Both the position numbers and the translations under genes were made by a program. From Bacteroidota bacterium (GTDB lineage: Bacteria; Bacteroidota; Ignavibacteria; UBA10030), in assembly GCA_049523215.1 (NCBI GenBank), contig JBEKNC010000006.1, positions 21,105 through 85,104 of the forward strand: a DNA stretch of 64,000 nucleotides. Direction: 5' to 3'. The notes under the pieces are model-generated. The model did not search any database. It was given only the letters and a program-made list of their open reading frames with translations, and had not been told where the DNA came from. Positions within the stretch are counted from its first letter, which is position 1. Each line of letters starts with the position of its first letter. Positions 5,354-51,602 of the stretch are shown here, piece by piece.

Positions 5354-5479
5354 ATTTGTTTATTCAAACTGAAGAAGAAGGAATACAGCTTCCTCTTCAT
5401 AAATAAATTAGGGCTTTAAAATATTGTGATCCTCGTTGTTATAGACGAAACAATCACCGGACTGTCAACGACATCACCG

Positions 5480-6613
5480 TTACCGTATCAACATCATTTT
5501 ACAAGACTTCACATTTGTCCCTATAGCGATGCGATAGAAATACATGCCCGATGAAAGCGCCTTTGCGTCAAAGGGTACTTGATAATTTCCTGCTTGCTGT
5601 TCTGCATTGACCAGAGGAGCCACACATTGACCCAGAATATTAAATACTTCAAGTCGCACGTTGGATTTTGTTGGCAATTGATATTCGATCGTCGTCGATG
5701 GATTGAACGGGTTAGGATAGTTCTGCGATAAAACTATTTCCTTTGGAAATGAATTGAAATTTTCTCTCTCTATGCCGGTCGTATTTGTCTTGGATTGTGA
5801 AAATACCCATGGTAAAAGAAAAACATTATTGTATGCTATATCCCAGATTGCATGACCGCCATTTTCGTATTCTGTATAAATAAGCCTTGCACCGTTTTTG
5901 AGTGTGTCGGCAATAATGCTATCGGGGAGCCCTGTACAATTCCCATTACGGCAATTAGTATAGACGACTGTGGCACCTGCATTTTCAAAGGCAGTCATCA
6001 TGTCTCTTGAGTATTGCACGGGGACGGTATTATCCTTAGCACCATGGAAATCCCATATCGGAATGTGTTTGATCAATATCACCTTTGATGCATCCCCTCC
6101 TCCACTCATTGGAACAGCAGCCGCAAACTTATTCGGGAAACGAACAATCAAATCCCATGTTGCGTATCCACCCATCGAAAGACCCGTGATATACATACGG
6201 TTTGTATCAACGGAAAATTCAATCAAGAGAGAATCCAGTATATCATTGACGGTGAGTATGATGTTCGAGGTGGTCCACCACCCATTAGCCAGGCATTGCG
6301 GAACAACGATGAAACAAGGCCAGCGTGTTTGATTTGAATCTTTTGCCCATACTGTTGCCATACTATTATTCTTCACGGCTGAAGGATTATCACCCCTTTC
6401 ACCGGCTCCATGCAAACAGAGCACAAGGGGGTATTGGATTTGGGGATCGTAAGCTGCTGGCACAAATATGTAATAGGGAAGCGTCGTGTTCTGAAAGGTG
6501 TGAGACCTCTTAGTGAAGTTGTTGAAGATATCATCAACGGATTGGGCATGAATCATTCCAGAAATACAGCTGATAATAAGCCATGTGAAAACCAACGTTC
6601 TGAAATTATTCAT
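5480..6613 (-). CDS. α/β-hydrolase family esterase with a type IX secretion C-terminal sorting domain
   Basis: CLHGAGERGDN and the nucleophile elbow GLSMGG. C-terminus NYPNPFNPSTTIEY...LEVFNILGQ...LSSGMYFYRI matches the T9SS CTD pattern. Confidence 0.8.
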   Translation of the reverse strand: MNNFRTLVFTWLIISCISGMIHAQSVDDIFNNFTKRSHTFQNTTLPYYIFVPAAYDPQIQYPLVLCLHGAGERGDNPSAVKNNSMATVWAKDSNQTRWPCFIVVPQCLANGWWTTSNIILTVNDILDSLLIEFSVDTNRMYITGLSMGGYATWDLIVRFPNKFAAAVPMSGGGDASKVILIKHIPIWDFHGAKDNTVPVQYSRDMMTAFENAGATVVYTNCRNGNCTGLPDSIIADTLKNGARLIYTEYENGGHAIWDIAYNNVFLLPWVFSQSKTNTTGIERENFNSFPKEIVLSQNYPNPFNPSTTIEYQLPTKSNVRLEVFNILGQCVAPLVNAEQQAGNYQVPFDAKALSSGMYFYRIAIGTNVKSCKMMLIR

Positions 6614-35595: not shown

Positions 35596-36360
35596 TTACT
35601 TGCAGAGAAAATCTCCTTCGAGGAGGAGATGTCCGTTCTTCTGCCTCACCTGCGGTATCGGCATTTCATCGAAGGTTCTTCCGGAGAGCTCGCGGCCGGC
35701 TGCTTTCTTGCGGACACCACCCCATTGCTTAAAGAAAAATGGAACTTCTGCTTCCCGGCAGCGGCGCTTAATCTGCGTTACCCAGTCACGCTCCATCGGG
35801 CGCGCACCCGGACCCGATTCGCCGCCGACAATAACCCAATCAATTCCTCTCAGTGGAAGTCTTGAGATGGGGCCAAGCAGCGGTTCTAAGGAAAGAAATC
35901 TCACAGCTGCTGGCACTTTGACCAGTTCATGGATCCGGTCTGTATATTTTTGAGATTCGACGCTCACGCCCATCCAGACATTTTCCGGCCACGGGAGATA
36001 CGGCGCAATTTGTACTAACCGATCCGATCTCTTCGTGAGTATCTGGAAAGTATGCCAATGTGCACGCTTCATGGTATCAAAAACTTTTACGATGAAATCG
36101 CAGGGAACATCTTTATGCAATAAATCGCTCATCGAGTTCACAAAAATGACGCGCGGTTGTTTCCATTCGAGCGGCAATTCAACGATATCTTCCTGGAGCG
36201 TGACTTGAAATCCATTCCGATACCGTGATGATCCCATTGCCTGAAGCCGCATAGCCATCCGCTCTGCGTAGCAATTCTTGCAGCCCGGACTGATTTTACT
36301 GCAGCCGGTTACCGGGTTCCAGGTAGATTCAGTCCATTCAATATGAGATTTTATCGCCAT
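35596..36360 (-). CDS. Phage Gp37/Gp68-family (DUF5131) protein with an N-terminal three-Cys motif
   Basis: N-terminus [36 protein letters not shown] matches the hallmark IEWT..TWNP.TGC...SxGCxxCYA signature of PF07505. Confidence 0.7.
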
Positions 36361-36362
36361 GA

Positions 36363-37247
36363 TTAATCCTCGAAAAGAGGTCTTTGATCTGATGCATATT
36401 TTTTAACTTCTTTCCAATATCGATATCCTAAAGAATGGCGAGAAAAAAATGCCAAATGATATAGAGATAAATTTTTTTCATCTGATTTGATTTCAAGCAT
36501 TTGTTTAATCGATTCTTCTTTATAATTTAATGTAACCATTTGTTGTGCATATTCGTTCGCTAGAAATTTACGAAAACTTTTCCCTTTAATTTGTTCATTT
36601 TTCCAGCGACCTCTCCATTCTGATAATCCAAGAAATTTATCGATTCTTTGATTGTTATTCTCTATATAAATAGATTCGTTTCTGACTCCATCCATAGAAA
36701 GAGCAAGAAGAATCAAAAAATCAACATATCTTTGTGCACATAGAGTTCTGATCGTATCAAATTCTATATTTAAAGAGAATGGATCCACAAAACAGAAAGT
36801 TAAAACTTTGTTATTCCGAGAAGGCGTTGGAATAAGCTTTAAAACATCAGTGATTTTTTTATTGCAGTCACCTAATATATAATGTGCATTCACTTGTGGA
36901 TATTCAGATTCTACCCTTGTTTGCAACGCCTGTAATAATCCTTCATTTTCTTCACAAAAAATGTATTGATCAAATTTATTTGCTAGTCCTAAAGCAAGAA
37001 GGGGCGAACCCGCTAAGATTTTATCTGTGTTCCTAACTTTTGCCTTTCCCGAACCAGCAAAAAGATCAATATAGACAAGTTGATTCCATGAATGCCTTAT
37101 ACCCTTTAAAAAAAGATCACAATAGAGATGCACTAATTTATATTTTCTCTCTGCCCAACTCCCGACTTCTGGAATAATAAGCCCATCATCAGATGAACAA
37201 ATACCTGAATGGTCAATATTTAAGCTGTTATCAATTTTATTCCCCAT
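36363..37247 (-). CDS. TcmP-like 'three-Cys-motif partner' protein. Methyltransferase-fold with RsmD-like motifs
   Basis: Sits 3 nt upstream of the Gp37/68 gene. Motif I-like IDLFAGSG. Motif IV-like FCFVDPF (DPPF-like). Confidence 0.55.
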
Positions 37248-37361
37248 TTTTTCCCTTTCATGACAATTAATTTACTTCTTCGCTTCCTTTTCCTTCCTTA
37301 CACTCTCTGAATCACCTTCACCACCCACCTCCTTCCGCCTCAACAATGTCCCTAATCCCGG

Positions 37362-37787
37362 TTATTTCTTTTTCCCGCACTCAATACAATATCCTTTGTG
37401 AACACAAATCGTACCTTTACATCGGGAACAAGTCCATCTTATATCTTCGTTCTTTAAAAATTTTCTCATACTGAAATTTTTAATATTTTCAAGATTTTCG
37501 ATCATGCTCATATCGTATTTAGTTCGGTATCTTGTATCCAAATGTTTCAAATTATCGCAGGGGAAATTTCGGCATTCAAAACAAAACTTCGCTTTGCCTT
37601 TTTGAAATATTGTGCAGGTCTTGATTTTACATCTAACACGGGTGATCGGTTTATCGGTGTCCACTCCTCTACAACCGGGACATTTATTTTTTTCTCTCAA
37701 ATAAGCCATGCAAATGCCGCAGTTCATTCCGCAGGGGGCTACAAGAGAAAATTTATTCAAGGATTCCATCTTTTCTTTCTCACACAC
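37362..37787 (-). CDS. Cys-rich small protein, DUF3795-like
   Basis: APCGMNCGICMAY, CPGCRG, CFEC, CSRC, CIEC. 18 cysteines in 141 aa. Overlaps the repressor gene by 8 nt. Confidence 0.5.
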   Translation of the reverse strand: MCEKEKMESLNKFSLVAPCGMNCGICMAYLREKNKCPGCRGVDTDKPITRVRCKIKTCTIFQKGKAKFCFECRNFPCDNLKHLDTRYRTKYDMSMIENLENIKNFSMRKFLKNEDIRWTCSRCKGTICVHKGYCIECGKKK

Positions 37788-38442
37788 TCTTAATCACTTT
37801 TATGACGCGCCACATGAAAGTCACGTCCTTCTTGCGCACGACCATCGGTTCGTATTCGGGATTGAGTGGAATCAAATGTACAAACTGCTCATCGATTTTG
37901 ATCCGCTTCACGGTGTCCTCCTCATCCACGCGCACCACGCAGATATCACCGCTTCTCACTTCTAATTTTGGCGTTACCACGATGATGTCGCCGTTCTCAA
38001 TGCGGGGCGCCATGCTGTTTCCCTTCACTTCGAGTGCGAAAGCATTCGGGTCGCGAACATCATCCACCGTAATGTATCGGTCAGCATGATCGGAATGAAA
38101 CCGCTGACTCAATGCACCAGCTGGCACAGAGGCAAGCAAGGGGAGTGAAACGAGGTCTACTTTTTTATAACGGCTTGTCGGTAATGGTATAACCTTGGAT
38201 TTGTGCTGTTCAGCAGAAACCATCTCTCCTTCACCAGTCAGTAGCCAGTGAGCCGTTATGCCGGTTGCTTTGGCAATGCGCATGAGATAATTACTGTCAG
38301 GCACCTGTTCGCCTTTTTCCCAGCGTTGAACGGTGCGAGTGGCAATATCGATCTTCGCGGCAAGGTCAGCTTGATCAAATTGTTTTAACAACCGCGCTTC
38401 GCGGATGCGTTGTGCAATTGTAGATTTCATAGAGTTATTCAC
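37780..38442 (-). CDS. LexA-like / phage cI-like repressor (XRE-type HTH plus S24 autopeptidase)
   Basis: HTH: IAQRIREARLLKQFDQADLAAKIDIATRTVQRWEKG. Ala-Gly cleavage site VPAGAL. Ser in GNSMAP and Lys in TVKRIK. Confidence 0.8.
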   Translation of the reverse strand: MNNSMKSTIAQRIREARLLKQFDQADLAAKIDIATRTVQRWEKGEQVPDSNYLMRIAKATGITAHWLLTGEGEMVSAEQHKSKVIPLPTSRYKKVDLVSLPLLASVPAGALSQRFHSDHADRYITVDDVRDPNAFALEVKGNSMAPRIENGDIIVVTPKLEVRSGDICVVRVDEEDTVKRIKIDEQFVHLIPLNPEYEPMVVRKKDVTFMWRVIKVIKSV

Positions 38443-38471: not shown

Positions 38472-38882
38472 TTATCCCCTCCTCACAGAGGAGGGGACAT
38501 GGGGAGGAGTAATTTTCTCATTGTATCTTGTTGTCCATTCGTAAATCGTTTGAAGAACACCATCTATATTGTTGCAAACATCATCGTTGGTAAAGCGCAT
38601 AAAATGAATACCGAAAGATTCAATATACTTCTGCCGTTCGTTGTCATATTTCTCAGAGAGATAGCCATAGTGACTATCTCCATCAATTTCGATAGCGAGC
38701 TTGAGTTCTGGACAATAGAAATCAATGACATACTGATTCACACTATATTGCCGGCGAAATTTGAATCCATTCATTTGTTTTCGTGAAAGATGCAACCAGA
38801 TAACCGCTTCCGCCTTCGAAAGTGATCGACGTAATGCTTTACGTCGTGCTGTATATGTTTTGTTATTAAAGACAATCGACAT
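38472..38882 (-). CDS. DUF559 (Vsr-like endonuclease domain) protein
   Basis: YVIDFYCPELKLAIEIDGDSHY pattern. A GC-rich hairpin encodes the last 8 codons. Confidence 0.65.
   Translation of the reverse strand: MSIVFNNKTYTARRKALRRSLSKAEAVIWLHLSRKQMNGFKFRRQYSVNQYVIDFYCPELKLAIEIDGDSHYGYLSEKYDNERQKYIESFGIHFMRFTNDDVCNNIDGVLQTIYEWTTRYNEKITPPHVPSSVRRG
38476..38496. repeat. Perfect 9-bp-stem hairpin cccctcctc-aca-gaggagggg (REP-like). A related copy lies at 39160-39186
   Basis: Read directly from the sequence. Confidence 0.5.
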
Positions 38883-38913
38883 AGTCTTTTCATTATCAAC
38901 AGTTCAGGTTAAT

Positions 38914-38929
38914 ACGACATAAATGTCAT
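38914..38929. promoter_or_regulatory. Candidate operator site 1: ACGACAT-AA-ATGTCAT imperfect palindrome
   Basis: About 35 nt upstream of the DUF559/repressor operon start. Inverted copy of the same motif at 39023-39040. Confidence 0.35.
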
Positions 38930-39014
38930 AATCAAAATAATGCTTTTTATCCCATATTGTCAATAGCTTTGTGATAGAGCGGAAAACGACGACGGATAGC
39001 ATCGGAATCACTTC

Positions 39015-39043
39015 TTGACAAGATGACAAAAATGTCGTATTCT
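39015..39043 (+). promoter_or_regulatory. σ70-like promoter candidate TTGACA-17-TATTCT pointing toward the imuA-like/polB genes, with operator site 2 (ATGACA-AAAA-TGTCGT) filling the spacer
   Basis: TTGACA at 39015-39020. Operator at 39023-39040. TATTCT at 39038-39043. Confidence 0.35.
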
Positions 39044-39199
39044 TTTTTAGGAATATAAGTTCTCATTACTCAATGAGAGTGTTAATAATGATAGAGGAAC
39101 AATTCCCTCTCCTCATAAAAGAGGGTTAGGGTGAGGTCAAAAAAACTGACCCCCATCTTAGTCCTCCCCTTGGAAGGGAGGAGACTAATAAAAGAATTT

Positions 39200-39991
39200 A
39201 TGAGCAAAATAAAACCCATATCTCCCGCCCAGCATCACCGCCGGTACCCTGCTCCGCAGCCAACCGTGGATATACACGATGATGCGGTGCCTATTCGCTC
39301 TGAGCGGATGATTCATGCCTTTGCAGACAAGCCCGGCAAGGTATTTCTGCTGTACGGCGAGCGGTCTATTTTTCAACTATCGCTTCAGATGGCCGCACAC
39401 GCGATGGTTCAGGGAAATCCTATTGCCGTTGTAGACGGCTGCAACCGTTTCGATGTGCACGCGCTTTCACGATTTGCACGCGTACGGAAAATAGACCCGA
39501 ACAAGTTCCTCAATCATATCTTCATCTCGCGCGGCTTCACGTGTTATCAAATGGAACAGGCTATTACACATAAGCTGCCGGCGTTTCTTGCTACCATTCA
39601 TTCAAGCACTGCACTGGTCTTTGGACTGCTCGACACCTTTTACGACGAACAGGCATCTCTGCGTGAAGTGCGGCAGATTCTTCAGAGACTGCTCGGCTCG
39701 TTTCAAGAAATGAAATCGAAAGGAGTCTCGCTCCTGCTGGTGTGTTTGGAAAGGACCGTTGCACCGCAGGAACGCAATCAGTTATTTACCACACTCAAAA
39801 ACGGTGTGGATCGCGTGTATAAACTCGATACCAATGAACGCGGATCGCTTCAGCTCTACTTAGAATCTCAACAGCCCGTGCACGAACAAATAAAAGGAAC
39901 ATTGAATTATGGGACGAACCGTACCCACCTTTACCAACCTGATCGATGCGGAACTGGCAAGCTGGTCGAAGTTCCGCCGCGGACTGCGTAA
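39200..39991 (+). CDS. ImuA/SulA-like RecA-fold protein (degenerate Walker A)
   Basis: KPGKVFLLYGERSIFQLSLQMAAHA...IAVVDGCNRFDVHALSRFA...VSLLLV. Matches the ImuA/SulA family pattern. No GKS/T lysine. The listed ORF begins at a GTG at 39131. ATG at 39200 used here. Confidence 0.5.
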   Translation: MSKIKPISPAQHHRRYPAPQPTVDIHDDAVPIRSERMIHAFADKPGKVFLLYGERSIFQLSLQMAAHAMVQGNPIAVVDGCNRFDVHALSRFARVRKIDPNKFLNHIFISRGFTCYQMEQAITHKLPAFLATIHSSTALVFGLLDTFYDEQASLREVRQILQRLLGSFQEMKSKGVSLLLVCLERTVAPQERNQLFTTLKNGVDRVYKLDTNERGSLQLYLESQQPVHEQIKGTLNYGTNRTHLYQPDRCGTGKLVEVPPRTA

Positions 39992-40206
39992 AGACGATCA
40001 GGAAGTCTTCGACGAAATATTCCGCGCTGCAAAACTGCATCTGGCAGAAAATTTTTATGCGATGCGTGCAGTTCCGTTCGAAAGCATGATGATGTCGATT
40101 GTAGTAGAACAGCAGAAGACGCTTCGGCGATTAGAGGAAGAAAGGAAGAAGTTAAGTAGATGAGTCTGTGAGTAGATGAGTAAGAGAAGGATGGAATAAT
40201 AGAACT

Positions 40207-42537
40207 ATGATTCAATCAGGCAATCACCCAATGGCTCAATCACGCCTCTCTGCCTGGCTGTTCGATGTGTATCCGTCTGAACGCGGCGTTACACTCTGGT
40301 TCATCGGCCGGAACGGTGTACGGCTGCGCTGCTTCCGAAAATTCACGCCCTCGTTCTTTCTTCACCTGAACAATTTCGACGCCAAGCGTGCGGCGGTTCT
40401 TGCCAATCAGTGCCCTATTCCAATATCACTTGTACCAACCACCCGTACGGAAATTTATTCCGGCGATTCCATCGACGTGCTGCAAGTCTTTGTTCATGAT
40501 CCGATGCGGTTCAAGAAAGTTGTATGGTACTTCGAGAAATTTTTTCCACACTTTGCATTTTTTAATTCCGATGTTTCCGTGGAACAGCAATTTCTGTATG
40601 AAACACAGCTGTTTCCGCTGGCACTTGGCGAGTATGAGGTCAGCAAGGAAGAAGAACTTCTCTCCTGGCATCTCAATGACAACCGTGAAGCGCCGGAATA
40701 TGAGCTGCCGCCGTTTTCCATTATGCAGCTTCGCAACAGTCCCGACTTTGTCGGGATGCCGCCGAAGTACCAAAAGTTTCTGCAATTAGAGATCAGTTAC
40801 GACAGCCGGACATATGCTTTAGAACAAAATTCGCCGCGCGAACTGCTCGAAGCGTTCAACTGGCATCTGCATCACTGCGATCCCGACTTGCTCGTTACCG
40901 ATTACGGCGATGCTGTTCTTCTTCCGAAGATTCTGCAGCTTTCCAAACAGTTCAACATTCCTTTGCTTCTCAATCGAGACACTGAGGCACAGCACCGCAC
41001 GACGAAGGAATCAAGTTTCTTTCAGTACGGAAAGATTGTCCACAAAGACGGCGCATTCACGCTCGCCGGGCGCTGGCATGTCGATGCGAACAATTCTTTT
41101 ACCGTGAGCGAAGCCGATCTTGACGGATTATTCGAGATGACACGTCTGACACAAATGTGCGGACAGCGGCAGGGACGCGCGAGCATCGGCACATCGATGT
41201 CATCGATGCAGCTTTCGTGGGCTTACCGCAACAATGTTCTTATTCCGTCGAAGAAGCGCGAACCGGAGGAGTTCAAGTCAGCTGCAACACTGCTGCTTGC
41301 CGACCGCGGTGGACTTATTTTTAACCCTCCGCTTGGCTATCACGAAGATGTTGCTGAACTCGATTTCGTCTCGATGTACCCAAACATTATGGTCAACAAC
41401 AATGTCTCGCCGGAAACGATCAACTGTCGATGCTGTAAAAATGAAGTTGTTCCGGAACTCGGTTACACAATCTGCGAAAAGCGGAGAGGCGTTGTGCCGG
41501 AGACACTTCGCGCTGTTGTCGCCAAACGTGCGTACTACAAACGGAAGAAAAAAGAATTCAAGGGAAAAGATGAAGCGCTTTTTAAACGGTACGATTGCCA
41601 GCAAAGTGCGCTCAAGTGGATGCTGGTAAGCTGTTTCGGATATCTCGGCTACAAGAATGCGCGCTTCGGCCGCATCGAAGCGCACGAATCAGTCAATGCC
41701 TTTTCGCGGGACGCCATTCTCACTGCAAAAGAAATTGCCGAGAGCCGCGGCTACAAGCTTCTCCACGCTATCATCGATTGTGTGTGGCTGAAAAAGCCGG
41801 GCGCGACACAGAACGATTACGAAGAGCTTACGCGTGAAATCTCCACACGTGTCGGTATTGATATTTCGCTGGAAGGCATGTACAACTGGATTCTTTTCCC
41901 TGCTTCCAAAACTGATCCGTATATCGCTACAGCAAATCACTATGTGGGATGGTACCGGCATGGTGACATCAAAATGCGCGGCATTGAAGCGCGCCAGCGT
42001 GATACGCCGAAGTTCATCAAGAACATGCAGAAAGCAATGCTGGATAAAATGTCCGCCGCAAAGAATGTCGAGGAAGTATCGGCACTCGTGCCGGAGATGT
42101 TGGAGATCGCACGCGACTTCATTGCAATTCTTCAAAGCGGCCGCGCAAACCCGATGGAGCTTGTTCTCAAACGCCACATCACGCATGAGGCCGATGAATA
42201 TCTCAATAACAGCATCAGCGCGGTTGTCTCAAAGATGGTAGAAGAAATGGGAGTACATCTCTCAGCAGGCGAGTCGATCGAGTTCATTATTCTCGATCAA
42301 TCCGGCAAGAAAAAGCCTGAAAAAGCTAAACCTGTTGCGTTGTACGCATTCGAGGATGGCTACGATATTGAGCAGTATACCGAGCTTGCCTTGCGGGCAG
42401 TGGAAACGCTTCTCCTTCCTTTCGGCTACGATGTACAGCGGTTGAAAGCACATTTTAAAATCGGCATACCAAAACAAAAGCGCCTGCAGGTACCCCAAAA
42501 AAGTCAGGAACTCCCGTTGTTCCGAATCCAGGTCTAA
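40207..42537 (+). CDS. Family B DNA polymerase (Pol II-like) with apparently degenerate 3'-5' exonuclease motifs
   Basis: Motif A DFVSMYPNIM. Motif B KWMLVSCFGYLGY. Motif C region HAIIDCVWL. Pol II-like N-terminus AWLFDVYPSERGVTLWFIGRNG. Expected Exo I (F/V)D(I/V)E(T) position is occupied by FSIMQL. Alternative start ATG 40231. Confidence 0.75.
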   Translation: MIQSGNHPMAQSRLSAWLFDVYPSERGVTLWFIGRNGVRLRCFRKFTPSFFLHLNNFDAKRAAVLANQCPIPISLVPTTRTEIYSGDSIDVLQVFVHDPMRFKKVVWYFEKFFPHFAFFNSDVSVEQQFLYETQLFPLALGEYEVSKEEELLSWHLNDNREAPEYELPPFSIMQLRNSPDFVGMPPKYQKFLQLEISYDSRTYALEQNSPRELLEAFNWHLHHCDPDLLVTDYGDAVLLPKILQLSKQFNIPLLLNRDTEAQHRTTKESSFFQYGKIVHKDGAFTLAGRWHVDANNSFTVSEADLDGLFEMTRLTQMCGQRQGRASIGTSMSSMQLSWAYRNNVLIPSKKREPEEFKSAATLLLADRGGLIFNPPLGYHEDVAELDFVSMYPNIMVNNNVSPETINCRCCKNEVVPELGYTICEKRRGVVPETLRAVVAKRAYYKRKKKEFKGKDEALFKRYDCQQSALKWMLVSCFGYLGYKNARFGRIEAHESVNAFSRDAILTAKEIAESRGYKLLHAIIDCVWLKKPGATQNDYEELTREISTRVGIDISLEGMYNWILFPASKTDPYIATANHYVGWYRHGDIKMRGIEARQRDTPKFIKNMQKAMLDKMSAAKNVEEVSALVPEMLEIARDFIAILQSGRANPMELVLKRHITHEADEYLNNSISAVVSKMVEEMGVHLSAGESIEFIILDQSGKKKPEKAKPVALYAFEDGYDIEQYTELALRAVETLLLPFGYDVQRLKAHFKIGIPKQKRLQVPQKSQELPLFRIQV

Positions 42538-49742: not shown

Positions 49743-51602
49743 GTGCTTCGTTCAATCATCACAACATTTTTTATTACAACAAGTCTCTTAGCTCAAAACA
49801 AAGTTGACACGGTCCAACTGCTGCCACCTATACAAGCCAACATAAAGAAAGACACACTTTTCTTGCAAGTACAGCGTCCGGATAAGGATACTATTTGGAC
49901 ATTTGCCTCGCGTTATCGGATAGCCGCTTGCACACGTCCGGATGCGAAAGCATTTATTAACGGGAAGCAAACAAAAGTATATGCAAGCGGAGCGTTTGTT
50001 GAACTTGCACATATTAACGTCGATACAAATATTATTCGTTTCACCGTAAAGTCGGCAGCCGGTGATTCGTTGTGGAAGGAGTTTGTCATCATTTGTCCCG
50101 AACCGATGAAGAACTCACCGCACGACACGCTTGTCATCGAACAAGCTATGATGGAACCATCCGAAGATATGTGGTTGACAACAGGCGATGTGCTGGAAGT
50201 AAAATTTAAAGGAAGCCCGGGATGGGAAGCATCGTTTGATATTCCGAAAGTTGAATCAGGAATTCCAATGCGCGAAGTGCCGCCGAGCGAAGGCGGCGGA
50301 TTTACCGGCATCTACATCGGCCGCTACAAAGTAAAAGCGACTGACGTAACGCATGAAGTACAGATCGAATTCCGACTGAAGAAAGGTTTCTGGAGCCGTG
50401 AGAAAGCATACTCTACAGCGAAGATTTCTATTCTTCCAAAAGAATTACCGCGCGTTGCAGAAGTTATTGGCAAGCGTCCGTATCTCAATGCCGGGCTTGG
50501 TGAGGATCGGCTTGGTGGTTCAAAACTTGGTTTTCTTCAAGCGGGTGTGCGGGTAGAGGTAACAGGAAAAATCGGATCGCAGTACCGCATACGCTTATCA
50601 GAAACAATGGAAGCATGGCTGTCGGAAGAATTTGCAAAACTCCTTTCGCCGGATACGCCAGTAGTACGATCGCTCGCCGGCGCAATTTCTGCAACCGGCA
50701 GTAGTACAGAAGATATTGTTACGGTTGCTCTTTCTGAAAAGCTTCCTTTCACAAGCGAGCAGTCAGTCAATCCCAATGCAATTGTTGTGGATATCTATGG
50801 TGCAACATCGAATACAAATTGGATTTCGCAGCAGCTTTCTGCAAAAGGAATCGAAAGCATAACATGGAAACAAGTTGCTGCAAACCAGTACCAAATCATC
50901 ATCAGTCTTCTGCATTCACATTGGGGATATGATATTGACTATGCAAGTAATTTGCTGCGCGTGAAGATCCGTCGCGCGCCAATGATGGCGTCGCCCGATT
51001 CAGTTCTTTCCGGACTCACCATTGCCGTTGATGCAGGACATGGCGGCGACAATCACGGTGCAATCGGTGCAACGGGCGTACAAGAAAAAGATATGACCAT
51101 CTCGATGGTTCATTACGTTGATTCTATTCTAACCGCCAAGGGTGCAAAGGTTGTACTAACACGAACGGAAAATGACGGCGCGGCAATGTCCGAGCGCATA
51201 GATAAAATTGTTCGTTCAGGTGCGCGCCTGCTAGTAAGTCTTCATTGTAATTCTGCCGGTGATGCCTCCGATCCGCTTGCTCTTCGCGGGGTCAGCACGT
51301 ACTACCGACATATTGGTTTTAAACCACTTGCCGACATTATGTATGACAAGATGCTTGCTATCGGACTAAAACAGTTTGGTGTTGTAGGTGGCTTTAACTT
51401 TATGCTCAATTCACTAACACAATTGCCCAATGTGCTCATAGAAACGGCGTTTCTTTCTCATCCAGAAGATGAAATGCTTTTGTTGGATAATGGATTCCGA
51501 AAGAAGGTGGCGGAGCAGATTGTAAAAGGACTTGAAGAATTTGTGAAAATTAATGCAGATGGATCGGAAATTGCAAAGGATAAACTAAGAAGTAAAAAGT
51601 AG
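49743..51602 (+). CDS. N-acetylmuramoyl-L-alanine amidase (Amidase_3) with a long N-terminal domain
   Basis: C-terminal IAVDAGHGGDNHGAIG...VSLHCNSA Zn-ligand pattern. Confidence 0.85.
   Translation: MLRSIITTFFITTSLLAQNKVDTVQLLPPIQANIKKDTLFLQVQRPDKDTIWTFASRYRIAACTRPDAKAFINGKQTKVYASGAFVELAHINVDTNIIRFTVKSAAGDSLWKEFVIICPEPMKNSPHDTLVIEQAMMEPSEDMWLTTGDVLEVKFKGSPGWEASFDIPKVESGIPMREVPPSEGGGFTGIYIGRYKVKATDVTHEVQIEFRLKKGFWSREKAYSTAKISILPKELPRVAEVIGKRPYLNAGLGEDRLGGSKLGFLQAGVRVEVTGKIGSQYRIRLSETMEAWLSEEFAKLLSPDTPVVRSLAGAISATGSSTEDIVTVALSEKLPFTSEQSVNPNAIVVDIYGATSNTNWISQQLSAKGIESITWKQVAANQYQIIISLLHSHWGYDIDYASNLLRVKIRRAPMMASPDSVLSGLTIAVDAGHGGDNHGAIGATGVQEKDMTISMVHYVDSILTAKGAKVVLTRTENDGAAMSERIDKIVRSGARLLVSLHCNSAGDASDPLALRGVSTYYRHIGFKPLADIMYDKMLAIGLKQFGVVGGFNFMLNSLTQLPNVLIETAFLSHPEDEMLLLDNGFRKKVAEQIVKGLEEFVKINADGSEIAKDKLRSKK

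Follow-up and report, generated by a model that had tools for sequence, protein, structure and literature searches.

A putative SOS-type control region with two promoter-embedded operators between a phage-type S24 repressor gene and a PolB2 mutasome operon in an Ignavibacteria-type Bacteroidota genome

An intergenic region of 318 bp was analyzed in a 64,000-nucleotide stretch of the genome of a Bacteroidota bacterium of the Ignavibacteria (contig JBEKNC010000006.1; this stretch is referred to as the window, and coordinates are those of the window unless another locus is named). The region lies between the start of a minus-strand DUF559 gene (38882), behind which a repressor gene is found, and the ATG at 39200 of a plus-strand operon that encodes iRadA, PPB2, and the DNA polymerase PolB2. 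We consider it probable, at roughly 85%, that this is the control region of an SOS-type switch in which the adjacent repressor would act on two operators, O1 and O2, a reading that is built on sequence comparison. The palindrome common to both sites also marks the promoter of this repressor and genes for damage-tolerance polymerases in about 90 related genomes. It most likely serves this little-studied group of bacteria as its DNA-damage (SOS) operator, and the repressor would be the LexA-equivalent of Ignavibacteria-type Bacteroidota.

Operators and promoters of the control region

Operator O1 (ACGACATAAATGTCAT) is located at 38914–38929 and operator O2 (ATGACAAAAATGTCGT) at 39023–39038; neither is assigned to a strand. 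Both are imperfect palindromes of 16 bp, and the distance between their centers is 109 bp. The 6-nt arms of the two sites are reverse-complementary to each other and the 4-nt A/T spacers differ, such that the reverse complement of O1, ATGACATTTATGTCGT, is identical to O2 at 13 of 16 positions. The counterpart of O2 in related genomes is the perfect palindrome ACGACAAAAATGTCGT. Two operator-like imperfect palindromes had been proposed at this place in a first-pass annotation made from the DNA letters of the window. The coordinates of the first site were exact, and the second was given the correct start and an end 2 nt too far (39040 rather than 39038). The description of the sites as reverse complements of one another is accurate for the arms and inaccurate for the spacers.

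The pattern AYGACA-N4-TGTCRT is matched three times in the 64-kb window, against 0.02 matches expected from 100 shuffles. The third match (ACGACACGCTTGTCAT, 50122–50137) falls within the gene for a 619-residue amidase. None of the orthologous sites has its spacer, CGCT, which consists of G and C with a single T, and the match receives a low matrix score. This match is probably a chance occurrence, though a third match is itself unexpected at 0.02 per window. A weight matrix was constructed from 92 distinct orthologous sites. Scores of 24.3 and 24.8 bits were obtained for O1 and O2, respectively, and these are the only strong matches in the 64 kb; the next best position scores 11.7 bits. The operator consensus is ACGACA-N4-TGTCGT, with GACA-WWWW-TGTC as the invariant core.

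Each operator overlaps one of two divergent promoters of the sigma-70 type, both of which score 10/12 in a consensus scan. The promoter of the iRadA-PPB2-PolB2 operon (39015–39043, plus strand) is composed of TTGACA at 39015–39020, a spacer of 17 nt, and TATTCT at 39038–39043, and O2 occupies the spacer between its −35 and −10 elements. The promoter of the repressor operon (38934–38963, minus strand) is composed of TTGACA at 38963–38958, a spacer of 18 nt, and TATTTT at 38939–38934. O1 begins 4 nt past this −10 element and spans the expected transcription start. The consensus scan and the sequence agree with the earlier proposal that site 2 fills the 17-nt spacer of a TTGACA...TATTCT element, and the promoter-like elements upstream of site 1 on the minus strand are present as it described them. 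When 17 control regions of the window type were aligned, the plus-strand TTGACA and both core palindromes were invariant in all 17. Sixteen of the 17 have the minus-strand hexamer, read as TGTCAA, and TAT..T is conserved in both −10 elements. The sequence between these conserved elements varies almost throughout.

The conservation of the motif was determined at 80 species-level loci that carry orthologues of the repressor with 52–98% protein identity. Nearly all of these loci are labeled Ignavibacteria, Ignavibacteriae, or Bacteroidota, and a few are labeled Chlorobiaceae. GACA-N4-TGTC with an A/T-only spacer is present upstream of the repressor orthologue in 79 of the 80, usually 20–200 nt from the ATG; in the one remaining locus, the contig breaks off ahead of the promoter. 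In an unbiased enumeration of every 4-mer dyad with spacers of 0–12 nt, GACA-N4-TGTC ranks first and is found in 68/80 upstream regions versus 0/66 control windows. The half-sites GACA and TGTC are kept in 184 of 184 half-site columns, a figure that follows by construction from the way the site set was assembled, and no compensatory changes were seen.

A total of 118 cores with an A/T spacer was found in 838 kb. Of these, 102 lie within 300 nt upstream of a repressor gene, 14 more belong to the same control region and are displaced by inserted genes, and two are elsewhere. The control region of the repressor gene accordingly accounts for 116 of the 118 cores, with a density ratio of 216-fold, and the repressor gene adjoins the operator control region in all repressor loci. 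A scatter of the motif without promoter association, which the first-pass annotation had named as evidence against its proposal, was not observed. The motif is tied exclusively to one repressor gene; judged from these comparisons, a conserved motif in this position is the classic signature of an autoregulated repressor.

Six known LexA boxes, among them the Escherichia coli box CTGT-N8-ACAG, the Gram-positive box GAAC-N4-GTTC, and three Bacteroidetes boxes, were searched for in the same 80 upstream regions. They occur in 0–1 of the 80, save GGA-N5-TCC, which is found in three, the same count as in the controls. The Bacteroidetes boxes CTAA-N5-TTAG and TTAC-N5-GTAA are found in none. The earlier remark that the motif does not match the classical LexA boxes is therefore correct. 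Neither a LexA motif for Ignavibacteria nor this palindrome as an SOS box was found in the open-access literature.

Repressor protein and polymerase operon

The repressor gene is located at 37780–38430 on the minus strand and encodes 216 residues from a conserved ATG at 38430. The open reading frame (ORF) that begins with GTG at 38442 (37780–38442) encodes the 220-residue protein of the first-pass annotation; its XRE and S24 domains are confirmed and its start is moved to the conserved ATG. The N-terminus (residues ~5–70) is a helix-turn-helix (HTH) domain of the 434/P22/CI type that matches Pfam HTH_3 and Phage_CI_repr, with E-values of 6e-5 to 9e-4 against the 434 and P22 C2 repressors. Peptidase_S24 (PF00717) is matched at residues 101–212 with an E-value of 1.4e-26, and this domain matches the C-terminal domains of LexA, CI, and UmuD in the PDB with E-values of 1e-12 to 1e-8. 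The whole protein is ~30% identical to many phage CI proteins. Its closest database relatives, at 71–91% identity, come from metagenome-assembled genomes of Ignavibacteriales/Bacteroidota.

The repressor segments VPAG, GNSM, and TVKR align with VAAG (A84-G85), GMSM (S119), and TVKR (K156) of E. coli LexA, respectively. This alignment predicts a cleavage bond at Ala104-Gly105 and a catalytic dyad of Ser139 and Lys175. In 16 orthologues, no variation was seen at the Ser, the Lys, or the second Gly, and the first scissile residue is either Ala or Gly. Across all 80 orthologues the HTH segment ATRTVQRWEKGEQVPDSNYL hardly varies, and in this it parallels the operator core. The proposal of a single dimeric repressor from the adjacent gene acting at both promoters is strongly supported at the comparative level by the motif in 79/80 loci, the promoter register, and the invariant HTH.

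The repressor lacks the winged HTH of PF01726 and scores 67 bits against TIGR00498, for which the cutoff is 111, by its C-terminal part only; therefore, it is not a canonical LexA. Membership of the two published clades of Bacteroidetes non-canonical LexA was likewise rejected. The motifs of those clades are absent, the S24 scores are low, and the repressor ends at the S24 domain without the ~35-residue C-terminal helical extension of those proteins. In a comparison that covers C-terminal domains and pairwise scores only, BLASTP against the domains of Supplementary Data S5 of PMC8565304 gave 36 bits for WP_025606010 and 32 bits for WP_075324850. The corresponding scores of the repressor S24 domain are 66 bits with lambda CI and 64 bits with E. 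coli LexA.

Several genomes have a motif-like sequence, GCGACATCATTGTCGT, within the repressor gene, where it encodes the conserved peptide GDIIVV (L014 6440, L028 6440, L050 6446, L053 2541, L016 1615, and L079 1899; L numbers denote individual loci and the numbers that follow are positions within them). The stretch coding for GDIIVV in the repressor gene of the window does not score as the motif. This recurrence is most simply a coding by-product.

The first gene of the plus-strand operon, iRadA (39200–39991), encodes an inactive homologue of RadA/Rad51. No match was found for it in Pfam or NCBIfam. A profile of 13 orthologues matches Pyrococcus RadA in the PDB with an E-value of 3.4e-5 and Rad51 with 7e-5, and the Walker A motif GxxxxGK[TS] was not found in the alignment. 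The second gene, PPB2 (arCOG07300/DUF8156; 39909–40163, plus strand), encodes a putative helical partner protein of 84 residues. The ORF of the window matched nothing in Pfam or NCBIfam; PF26485 is the precomputed annotation of its homologues, and tblastn located a homologue between iRadA and PolB2 wherever a locus carries both. The third gene, PolB2 (40207–42537, plus strand), encodes an archaeal-type family B polymerase that matches Pfam DNA_pol_B (PF00136). In NCBIfam it scores best against models of archaeal-type PolB and not of Pol II. Motif C of this polymerase reads AIIDCVW (residues 521–527), with the first Asp of DxD replaced.

The PPB2 gene overlaps the end of the iRadA ORF by 83 nt (39909–39991) in a different frame. 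The tail encoded in the iRadA frame, YGTNRT.L.QPDR..GKLV.VPPRT, appears to be conserved in several orthologues, and other iRadA orthologues end near "LES" and have no such tail; the published iRadA-PPB2 fusions may be relevant here.

The order iRadA-PPB2-PolB2 on one strand is found in the window, in 35 genome loci, and in seven dinB loci. Makarova et al. 2014 (PMC4104785) and Timinskas et al. 2025 (PMC11791011) reported this order for the PolB2 mutasome operon. Both papers also note a tendency of bacterial polB2 operons to adjoin lexA, and no operator or promoter is given in either. The genes had been called imuA-like and polB in the first-pass annotation, a designation that is replaced by iRadA-PPB2-PolB2 on the basis of the RadA profile match and the archaeal type of the polymerase. 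An imuA-imuB-dnaE2 cassette was rejected: there is no ImuB or DnaE2, the polymerase belongs to family B, and the recombinase homologue is RadA-like.

Operator-associated genes and inserted sequences

The presence of the operator away from the repressor gene was examined on eight contigs of DinB homologues, which include proteins named Ignavibacteria/Bacteroidota. The module TTGACA-N2/3-ACGACA-N4-TGTCGT-AT..T is found in front of the dinB operon in 8/8 loci with scores of 24–27 bits, and an auxiliary site lies 31–32 nt upstream of the dinB operator in seven. No repressor gene is present within 3 kb in any of the eight. Seven of these operons continue as dinB-(DUF72-like)-iRadA-PPB2-PolB2. Since the promoter-operator module stands at dinB operons away from the repressor gene, a trans-acting SOS-like regulon is indicated. 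Translesion polymerase genes form the conserved core of SOS regulons (PMC8565304).

A pattern scan of metagenomes with ACGACAWWTTTGTCGT returned 120 contigs with G+C contents of 24–67%, about eight of which are repressor loci. The genes that flank the remaining intergenic matches show no enrichment for DNA-repair families, and most of the matches are therefore attributed to chance or to unrelated sites. The scan was informative only after filtering for paired sites 31–32 nt apart, which led to the metagenome contig L112. On this contig, which has no repressor gene, a PDDEXK_3 gene and dinB follow an operator pair.

Four arrangements are found at the repressor loci. In type A (the window and 16 loci), the repressor gene is divergent from iRadA-PPB2-PolB2 and the sites are 96–109 bp apart. 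In type B (14 loci), it is divergent from DUF72, beyond which SRAP and the PolB2 operon lie, and 32 bp separate the sites; DUF72-iRadA-PPB2-PolB2 forms one operon in three type B loci. Type C (four loci) is a single operon, (TcmP)-DUF5131-repressor-iRadA and so on, behind a single operator. In type D (three loci), the repressor gene is divergent from a gene for a PA0069/SplB-like radical SAM protein. The genes adjacent to operators other than dinB and the PolB2 operon, namely DUF72, PA0069 radical SAM, and TcmP-DUF5131, are damage-related. Where the PA0069 radical SAM gene is 3.5 kb away from the repressor gene (L065–L076), no site was found at it.

When sites with one mismatch are counted, most loci carry two sites 30–33 bp apart, or approximately three helical turns. 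This spacing is seen in most genomes (L015–L080 and L201–L208), and spacings of 96–98 or 107–109 bp are seen in the sub-clade of the window. The spacings of 109 and 98 bp, which differ by one helical turn between sub-clades, and those of 31–32 bp could place two dimers on the same face of the DNA and possibly allow cooperative binding, although this suggestion is speculative.

Further features of these operons were recorded (L201–L208, with dinB from 3001; L015; and L020). The dinB/DUF72-like/iRadA/PPB2/PolB2 operons, which occur in many related genomes, are often led by a small Cys-rich, zinc-ribbon-like ORF. Genes for Yip1, DUF72, and a UvrD-like helicase are carried on the side divergent from the dinB operons. 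In type B loci, an antisense SRAP gene has been inserted between DUF72 and iRadA, and L015 carries a PIN/MazE toxin-antitoxin pair between PPB2 and PolB2.

On the repressor side of the window, the DUF559 gene (38472–38882, minus strand; Pfam DUF559, E-value 5e-33) encodes a Vsr-like endonuclease fold and is inserted between O1 and the repressor gene. DUF559 occurs at this position only in the window, L001–L003, and L116. It is absent in L004–L006, where the repressor ATG is 13 nt beyond O1 and the start of the site is 29–31 nt upstream of the ATG. By this comparison, DUF559 is a recent insertion that is now the first gene of the repressor-side transcript. The DUF559/repressor operon of the first-pass annotation is consequently an accurate account of the present state of the window and not a conserved arrangement.

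Three genes are located downstream of the repressor on the minus strand: DUF3795 (37362–37787), TcmP (three-Cys-motif partner; 36363–37247), and DUF5131 (35596–36360). No convincing terminator was found between the repressor and these genes (35596–37787), and DUF3795-TcmP-DUF5131 is probably cotranscribed with the repressor gene. In L053 (1035–1757) and L057 (316–1870), (TcmP)-DUF5131 is upstream of the repressor gene and directly behind the operator. An operator is also found directly upstream of TcmP-DUF5131 in L097 (3976–5560) and upstream of DUF5131 in L199 (5356–6081). The TcmP-DUF5131 pair may be a member of the damage regulon.

Operator-controlled units repeatedly contain small ORFs that look nuclease-like or selfish and that belong to three unrelated families (DUF559, PDDEXK_3/GxxExxY, and 23S_rRNA_IVP). 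These ORFs are located at 38472–38882 in the window, at 5462–5758 in L007, at 5437–5733 in L010, at 3781–4134 in L053, and at 2691–3083 in L056. Additional examples are located at 1234–1638 in L112, at 2440–2988 in L201, and at 5822–6154 in L207. They are often found between the operator and the first repair gene, and their positions and orientations differ among genomes. The pattern suggests that such ORFs have entered damage-inducible leaders repeatedly and independently, or have been retained there.

The 5′ leader of iRadA in the window contains an insertion of ~143 nt (~39057–39196, plus strand) with the inverted ends ATAAGTTCT and AGAATTTAT. It is specific to the window and absent from L001–L006, where the iRadA ATG follows the −10 element by ~11 nt and the transcript would consequently be nearly leaderless. 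A folding energy of −46.7 kcal/mol (z −3.4) was calculated for the insertion. An Rfam search of 38700–39400 returned nothing at E ≤ 1, and a search of the window and of 200 loci revealed no further copy of the insertion. The insertion shares an element, CCCTCTCC...GAGAGGGTTAGGG, with the 5′ flank of the DUF559 genes at the same position in L007 and L010, and it may therefore be a remnant of a DUF559-type cassette. The palindromes TCTCATT-N4-AATGAGA (39061–39078) and GGTCA-N7-TGACC (39135–39151), noted earlier as additional elements of the control region, are at the coordinates given. Both lie within this insertion, and a role as auxiliary operators was rejected since the insertion is not conserved.

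Proposed switch and alternative explanations

In the proposed switch, a repressor dimer at O2 would occupy the spacer between the −35 and −10 elements of the promoter of iRadA-PPB2-PolB2, the translesion PolB2 mutasome. A dimer at O1 would cover the transcription start of the promoter for DUF559 and the repressor, and probably for DUF3795-TcmP-DUF5131 as well. RNA polymerase would be excluded or blocked at both promoters, and repressor synthesis would therefore be self-limiting. Upon DNA damage, filaments of RecA on single-stranded DNA would trigger self-cleavage at Ala104-Gly105 by Ser139 and Lys175. Cleavage would separate the DNA-binding half from the dimerization half and release both promoters. 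The polymerase arm would then yield iRadA, PPB2, and PolB2, and the other arm would restore the repressor. In the wider clade, the same repressor-operator pair would also control dinB (often as dinB-DUF72-iRadA-PPB2-PolB2), DUF72, the PA0069/SplB-like radical SAM gene, and TcmP-DUF5131. The predicted binding to O1 and O2, cleavage, RecA dependence, and induction are modeled on the behavior of LexA, lambda CI, and the Bacteroidetes proteins.

SOS networks under the control of CI-type S24 repressors are known from Bacteroidetes (PMC8565304) and from Francisella (PMC13148647). The closest parallel in lineage is the Bacteroidetes non-canonical LexA (Sanchez-Osuna et al., NAR 2021, PMC8565304), which is found in the same broad lineage (FCB group/GTDB Bacteroidota). 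Those proteins are also chromosomal and combine a CI/XRE HTH (PF01381) with an S24 domain that carries the cleavage site and the Ser-Lys dyad. They have a palindromic dyad-spacer operator, often in two copies, in their own promoter, and they control dinB and SplB-like radical SAM genes. In silico, a dyad motif in the self-promoter and one at translesion polymerase genes are both found here as well, the latter at dinB and the PolB2 operon. In contrast to the published motifs GGA-N5-TCC, CTAA-N5-TTAG, and TTAC-N5-GTAA, the motif described here is CGACA-N4-TGTCG. The core target also differs, being the PolB2 mutasome, and the host group, Ignavibacteria, lies outside that study.

FddR of Francisella (PNAS Nexus 2026, PMC13148647) is likewise a co-opted phage-type S24 repressor with a palindrome in its own promoter, and it regulates itself and divergent genes; SOS network rebuilding from self-contained divergent units is proposed in that paper. 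FddR differs in that it binds GTG-N11-CAC and that its gammaproteobacterial host keeps a diverged LexA. A polymerase operon is part of the unit described here, unlike that of FddR, and unlinked dinB operons carry the operator as well. The CI repressors of phages 434, P22, and lambda share short palindromic operators with an A/T-rich center, overlap with promoter elements, and operator pairs that possibly support cooperativity. The 434 operator, ACAA-N6-TTGT, differs from the operator here, and the present repressor, unlike phage CI, is chromosomal and vertically conserved, with no cro partner or lytic genes and with damage-tolerance targets. The lexA-linked PolB2 operons and the LexA-regulated imuA-imuB-dnaE2 cassette resemble the present system in placing an inactive recombinase homologue, an accessory protein, and an error-prone polymerase by an SOS repressor gene. 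The iRadA-PPB2-PolB2 order and the enrichment of DUF72 and SRAP neighbors match PMC4104785 and PMC11791011. The neighbor is called "lexA" in those papers, whereas here it is not a canonical LexA and a candidate operator is described.

Several observations weigh against an SOS-type switch. In many type B loci, no operator is found directly before iRadA, and the SRAP gene on the opposite strand separates the PolB2 genes from the operator. The broad metagenome scan is dominated by unrelated matches. The motif scan of the source genome spans 64 kb, and that of the other genomes spans neighborhoods only. The half-site GACA is contained within the TTGACA hexamer itself, and part of the conservation of TTGACA could consequently reflect contacts with the repressor rather than with sigma factor. 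The predicted scissile bond is Gly-Gly, not Ala-Gly, in most orthologues. Covariation between the HTH and the operator is uninformative: none was seen among the orthologues, because both the HTH and the operator core are invariant.

A strictly local role could account for part of these data. The repressor would then regulate the divergent repressor/PolB2 unit alone, and another factor, such as a canonical LexA encoded elsewhere, would run the main damage response. O1 and O2 are the only sites in the 64-kb window, the sites stand solely before the repressor gene in 45 of 80 loci, and Francisella FddR is a published example of a self-contained unit; a genome scan of 64 kb also leaves room for a canonical LexA elsewhere. 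This explanation is nevertheless unlikely, given that the module stands in front of dinB operons at 8/8 loci of the same clade that lack a repressor gene within 3 kb, and on L112, and that PA0069 radical SAM, DUF72, and TcmP-DUF5131 are further operator-adjacent targets.

Very little probability is assigned to an immunity region of a prophage or mobile element, with a CI-like repressor acting on divergent promoters of the PRM/PR type. The repressor does have the full architecture of phage CI, with ~30% identity to many such proteins, the divergent layout resembles phage immunity regions, and DUF5131 is a family also found in phages; local mobility is evident from DUF559 and the 143-nt insertion. 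However, no integrase, cro-like, or structural phage gene is nearby, the flanking genes encode a peptidase, an Omp85-like protein, and arginine biosynthesis, and the divergent operon encodes iRadA-PPB2-PolB2 rather than lytic functions. The absence of phage genes and the conservation of the repressor as an orthologue (52–98% identity) in 80 species-level genomes with recurring chromosomal neighbors led to the rejection of this candidate. It is scarcely credible that the palindromes are chance or structural features, such as hairpins or a product of promoter-spacer composition, or that they are sites of an unrelated transcription factor. Each could form a 6-bp stem with a 4-nt loop, and the pairing of repressor and operator is drawn from sequence comparison. 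Yet the sequence itself is invariant and not the pairing alone, the spacers are A/T-only, compensatory changes are lacking, and the unbiased enumeration recovered the dyad at 68/80 loci; 0.02 matches per window would be expected by chance, and the link to one repressor gene is exclusive.

The SOS-type switch remains the favored explanation, and a broader proposal is advanced tentatively, at slightly less than even odds. A CI-type HTH/S24 lineage, apart from canonical LexA and from the two published Bacteroidetes clades, might hold the role of master SOS repressor in Ignavibacteria and related Bacteroidota. It would act through a portable promoter-embedded operator, TTGACA-N2-ACGACA-N4-TGTCGT-AT, on a core regulon of DinB and the archaeal-derived PolB2 mutasome. 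If so, the SOS network would have been rebuilt independently once more, and bacterial PolB2 would have its first defined regulatory input.

The switch would define an SOS operator and a first regulon for the environmental class Ignavibacteria and its allies, for which the literature searched holds no LexA motif. The motif, at ~25 bits, is sharp enough for direct annotation of the regulon in metagenome-assembled genomes, and a cultured relative, Ignavibacterium album, makes experimental work feasible. The system would add a case for the repeated rebuilding of SOS networks around phage-type S24 repressors, and it would give the uncharacterized bacterial PolB2 mutasome a concrete candidate for a damage-inducible promoter and operator.

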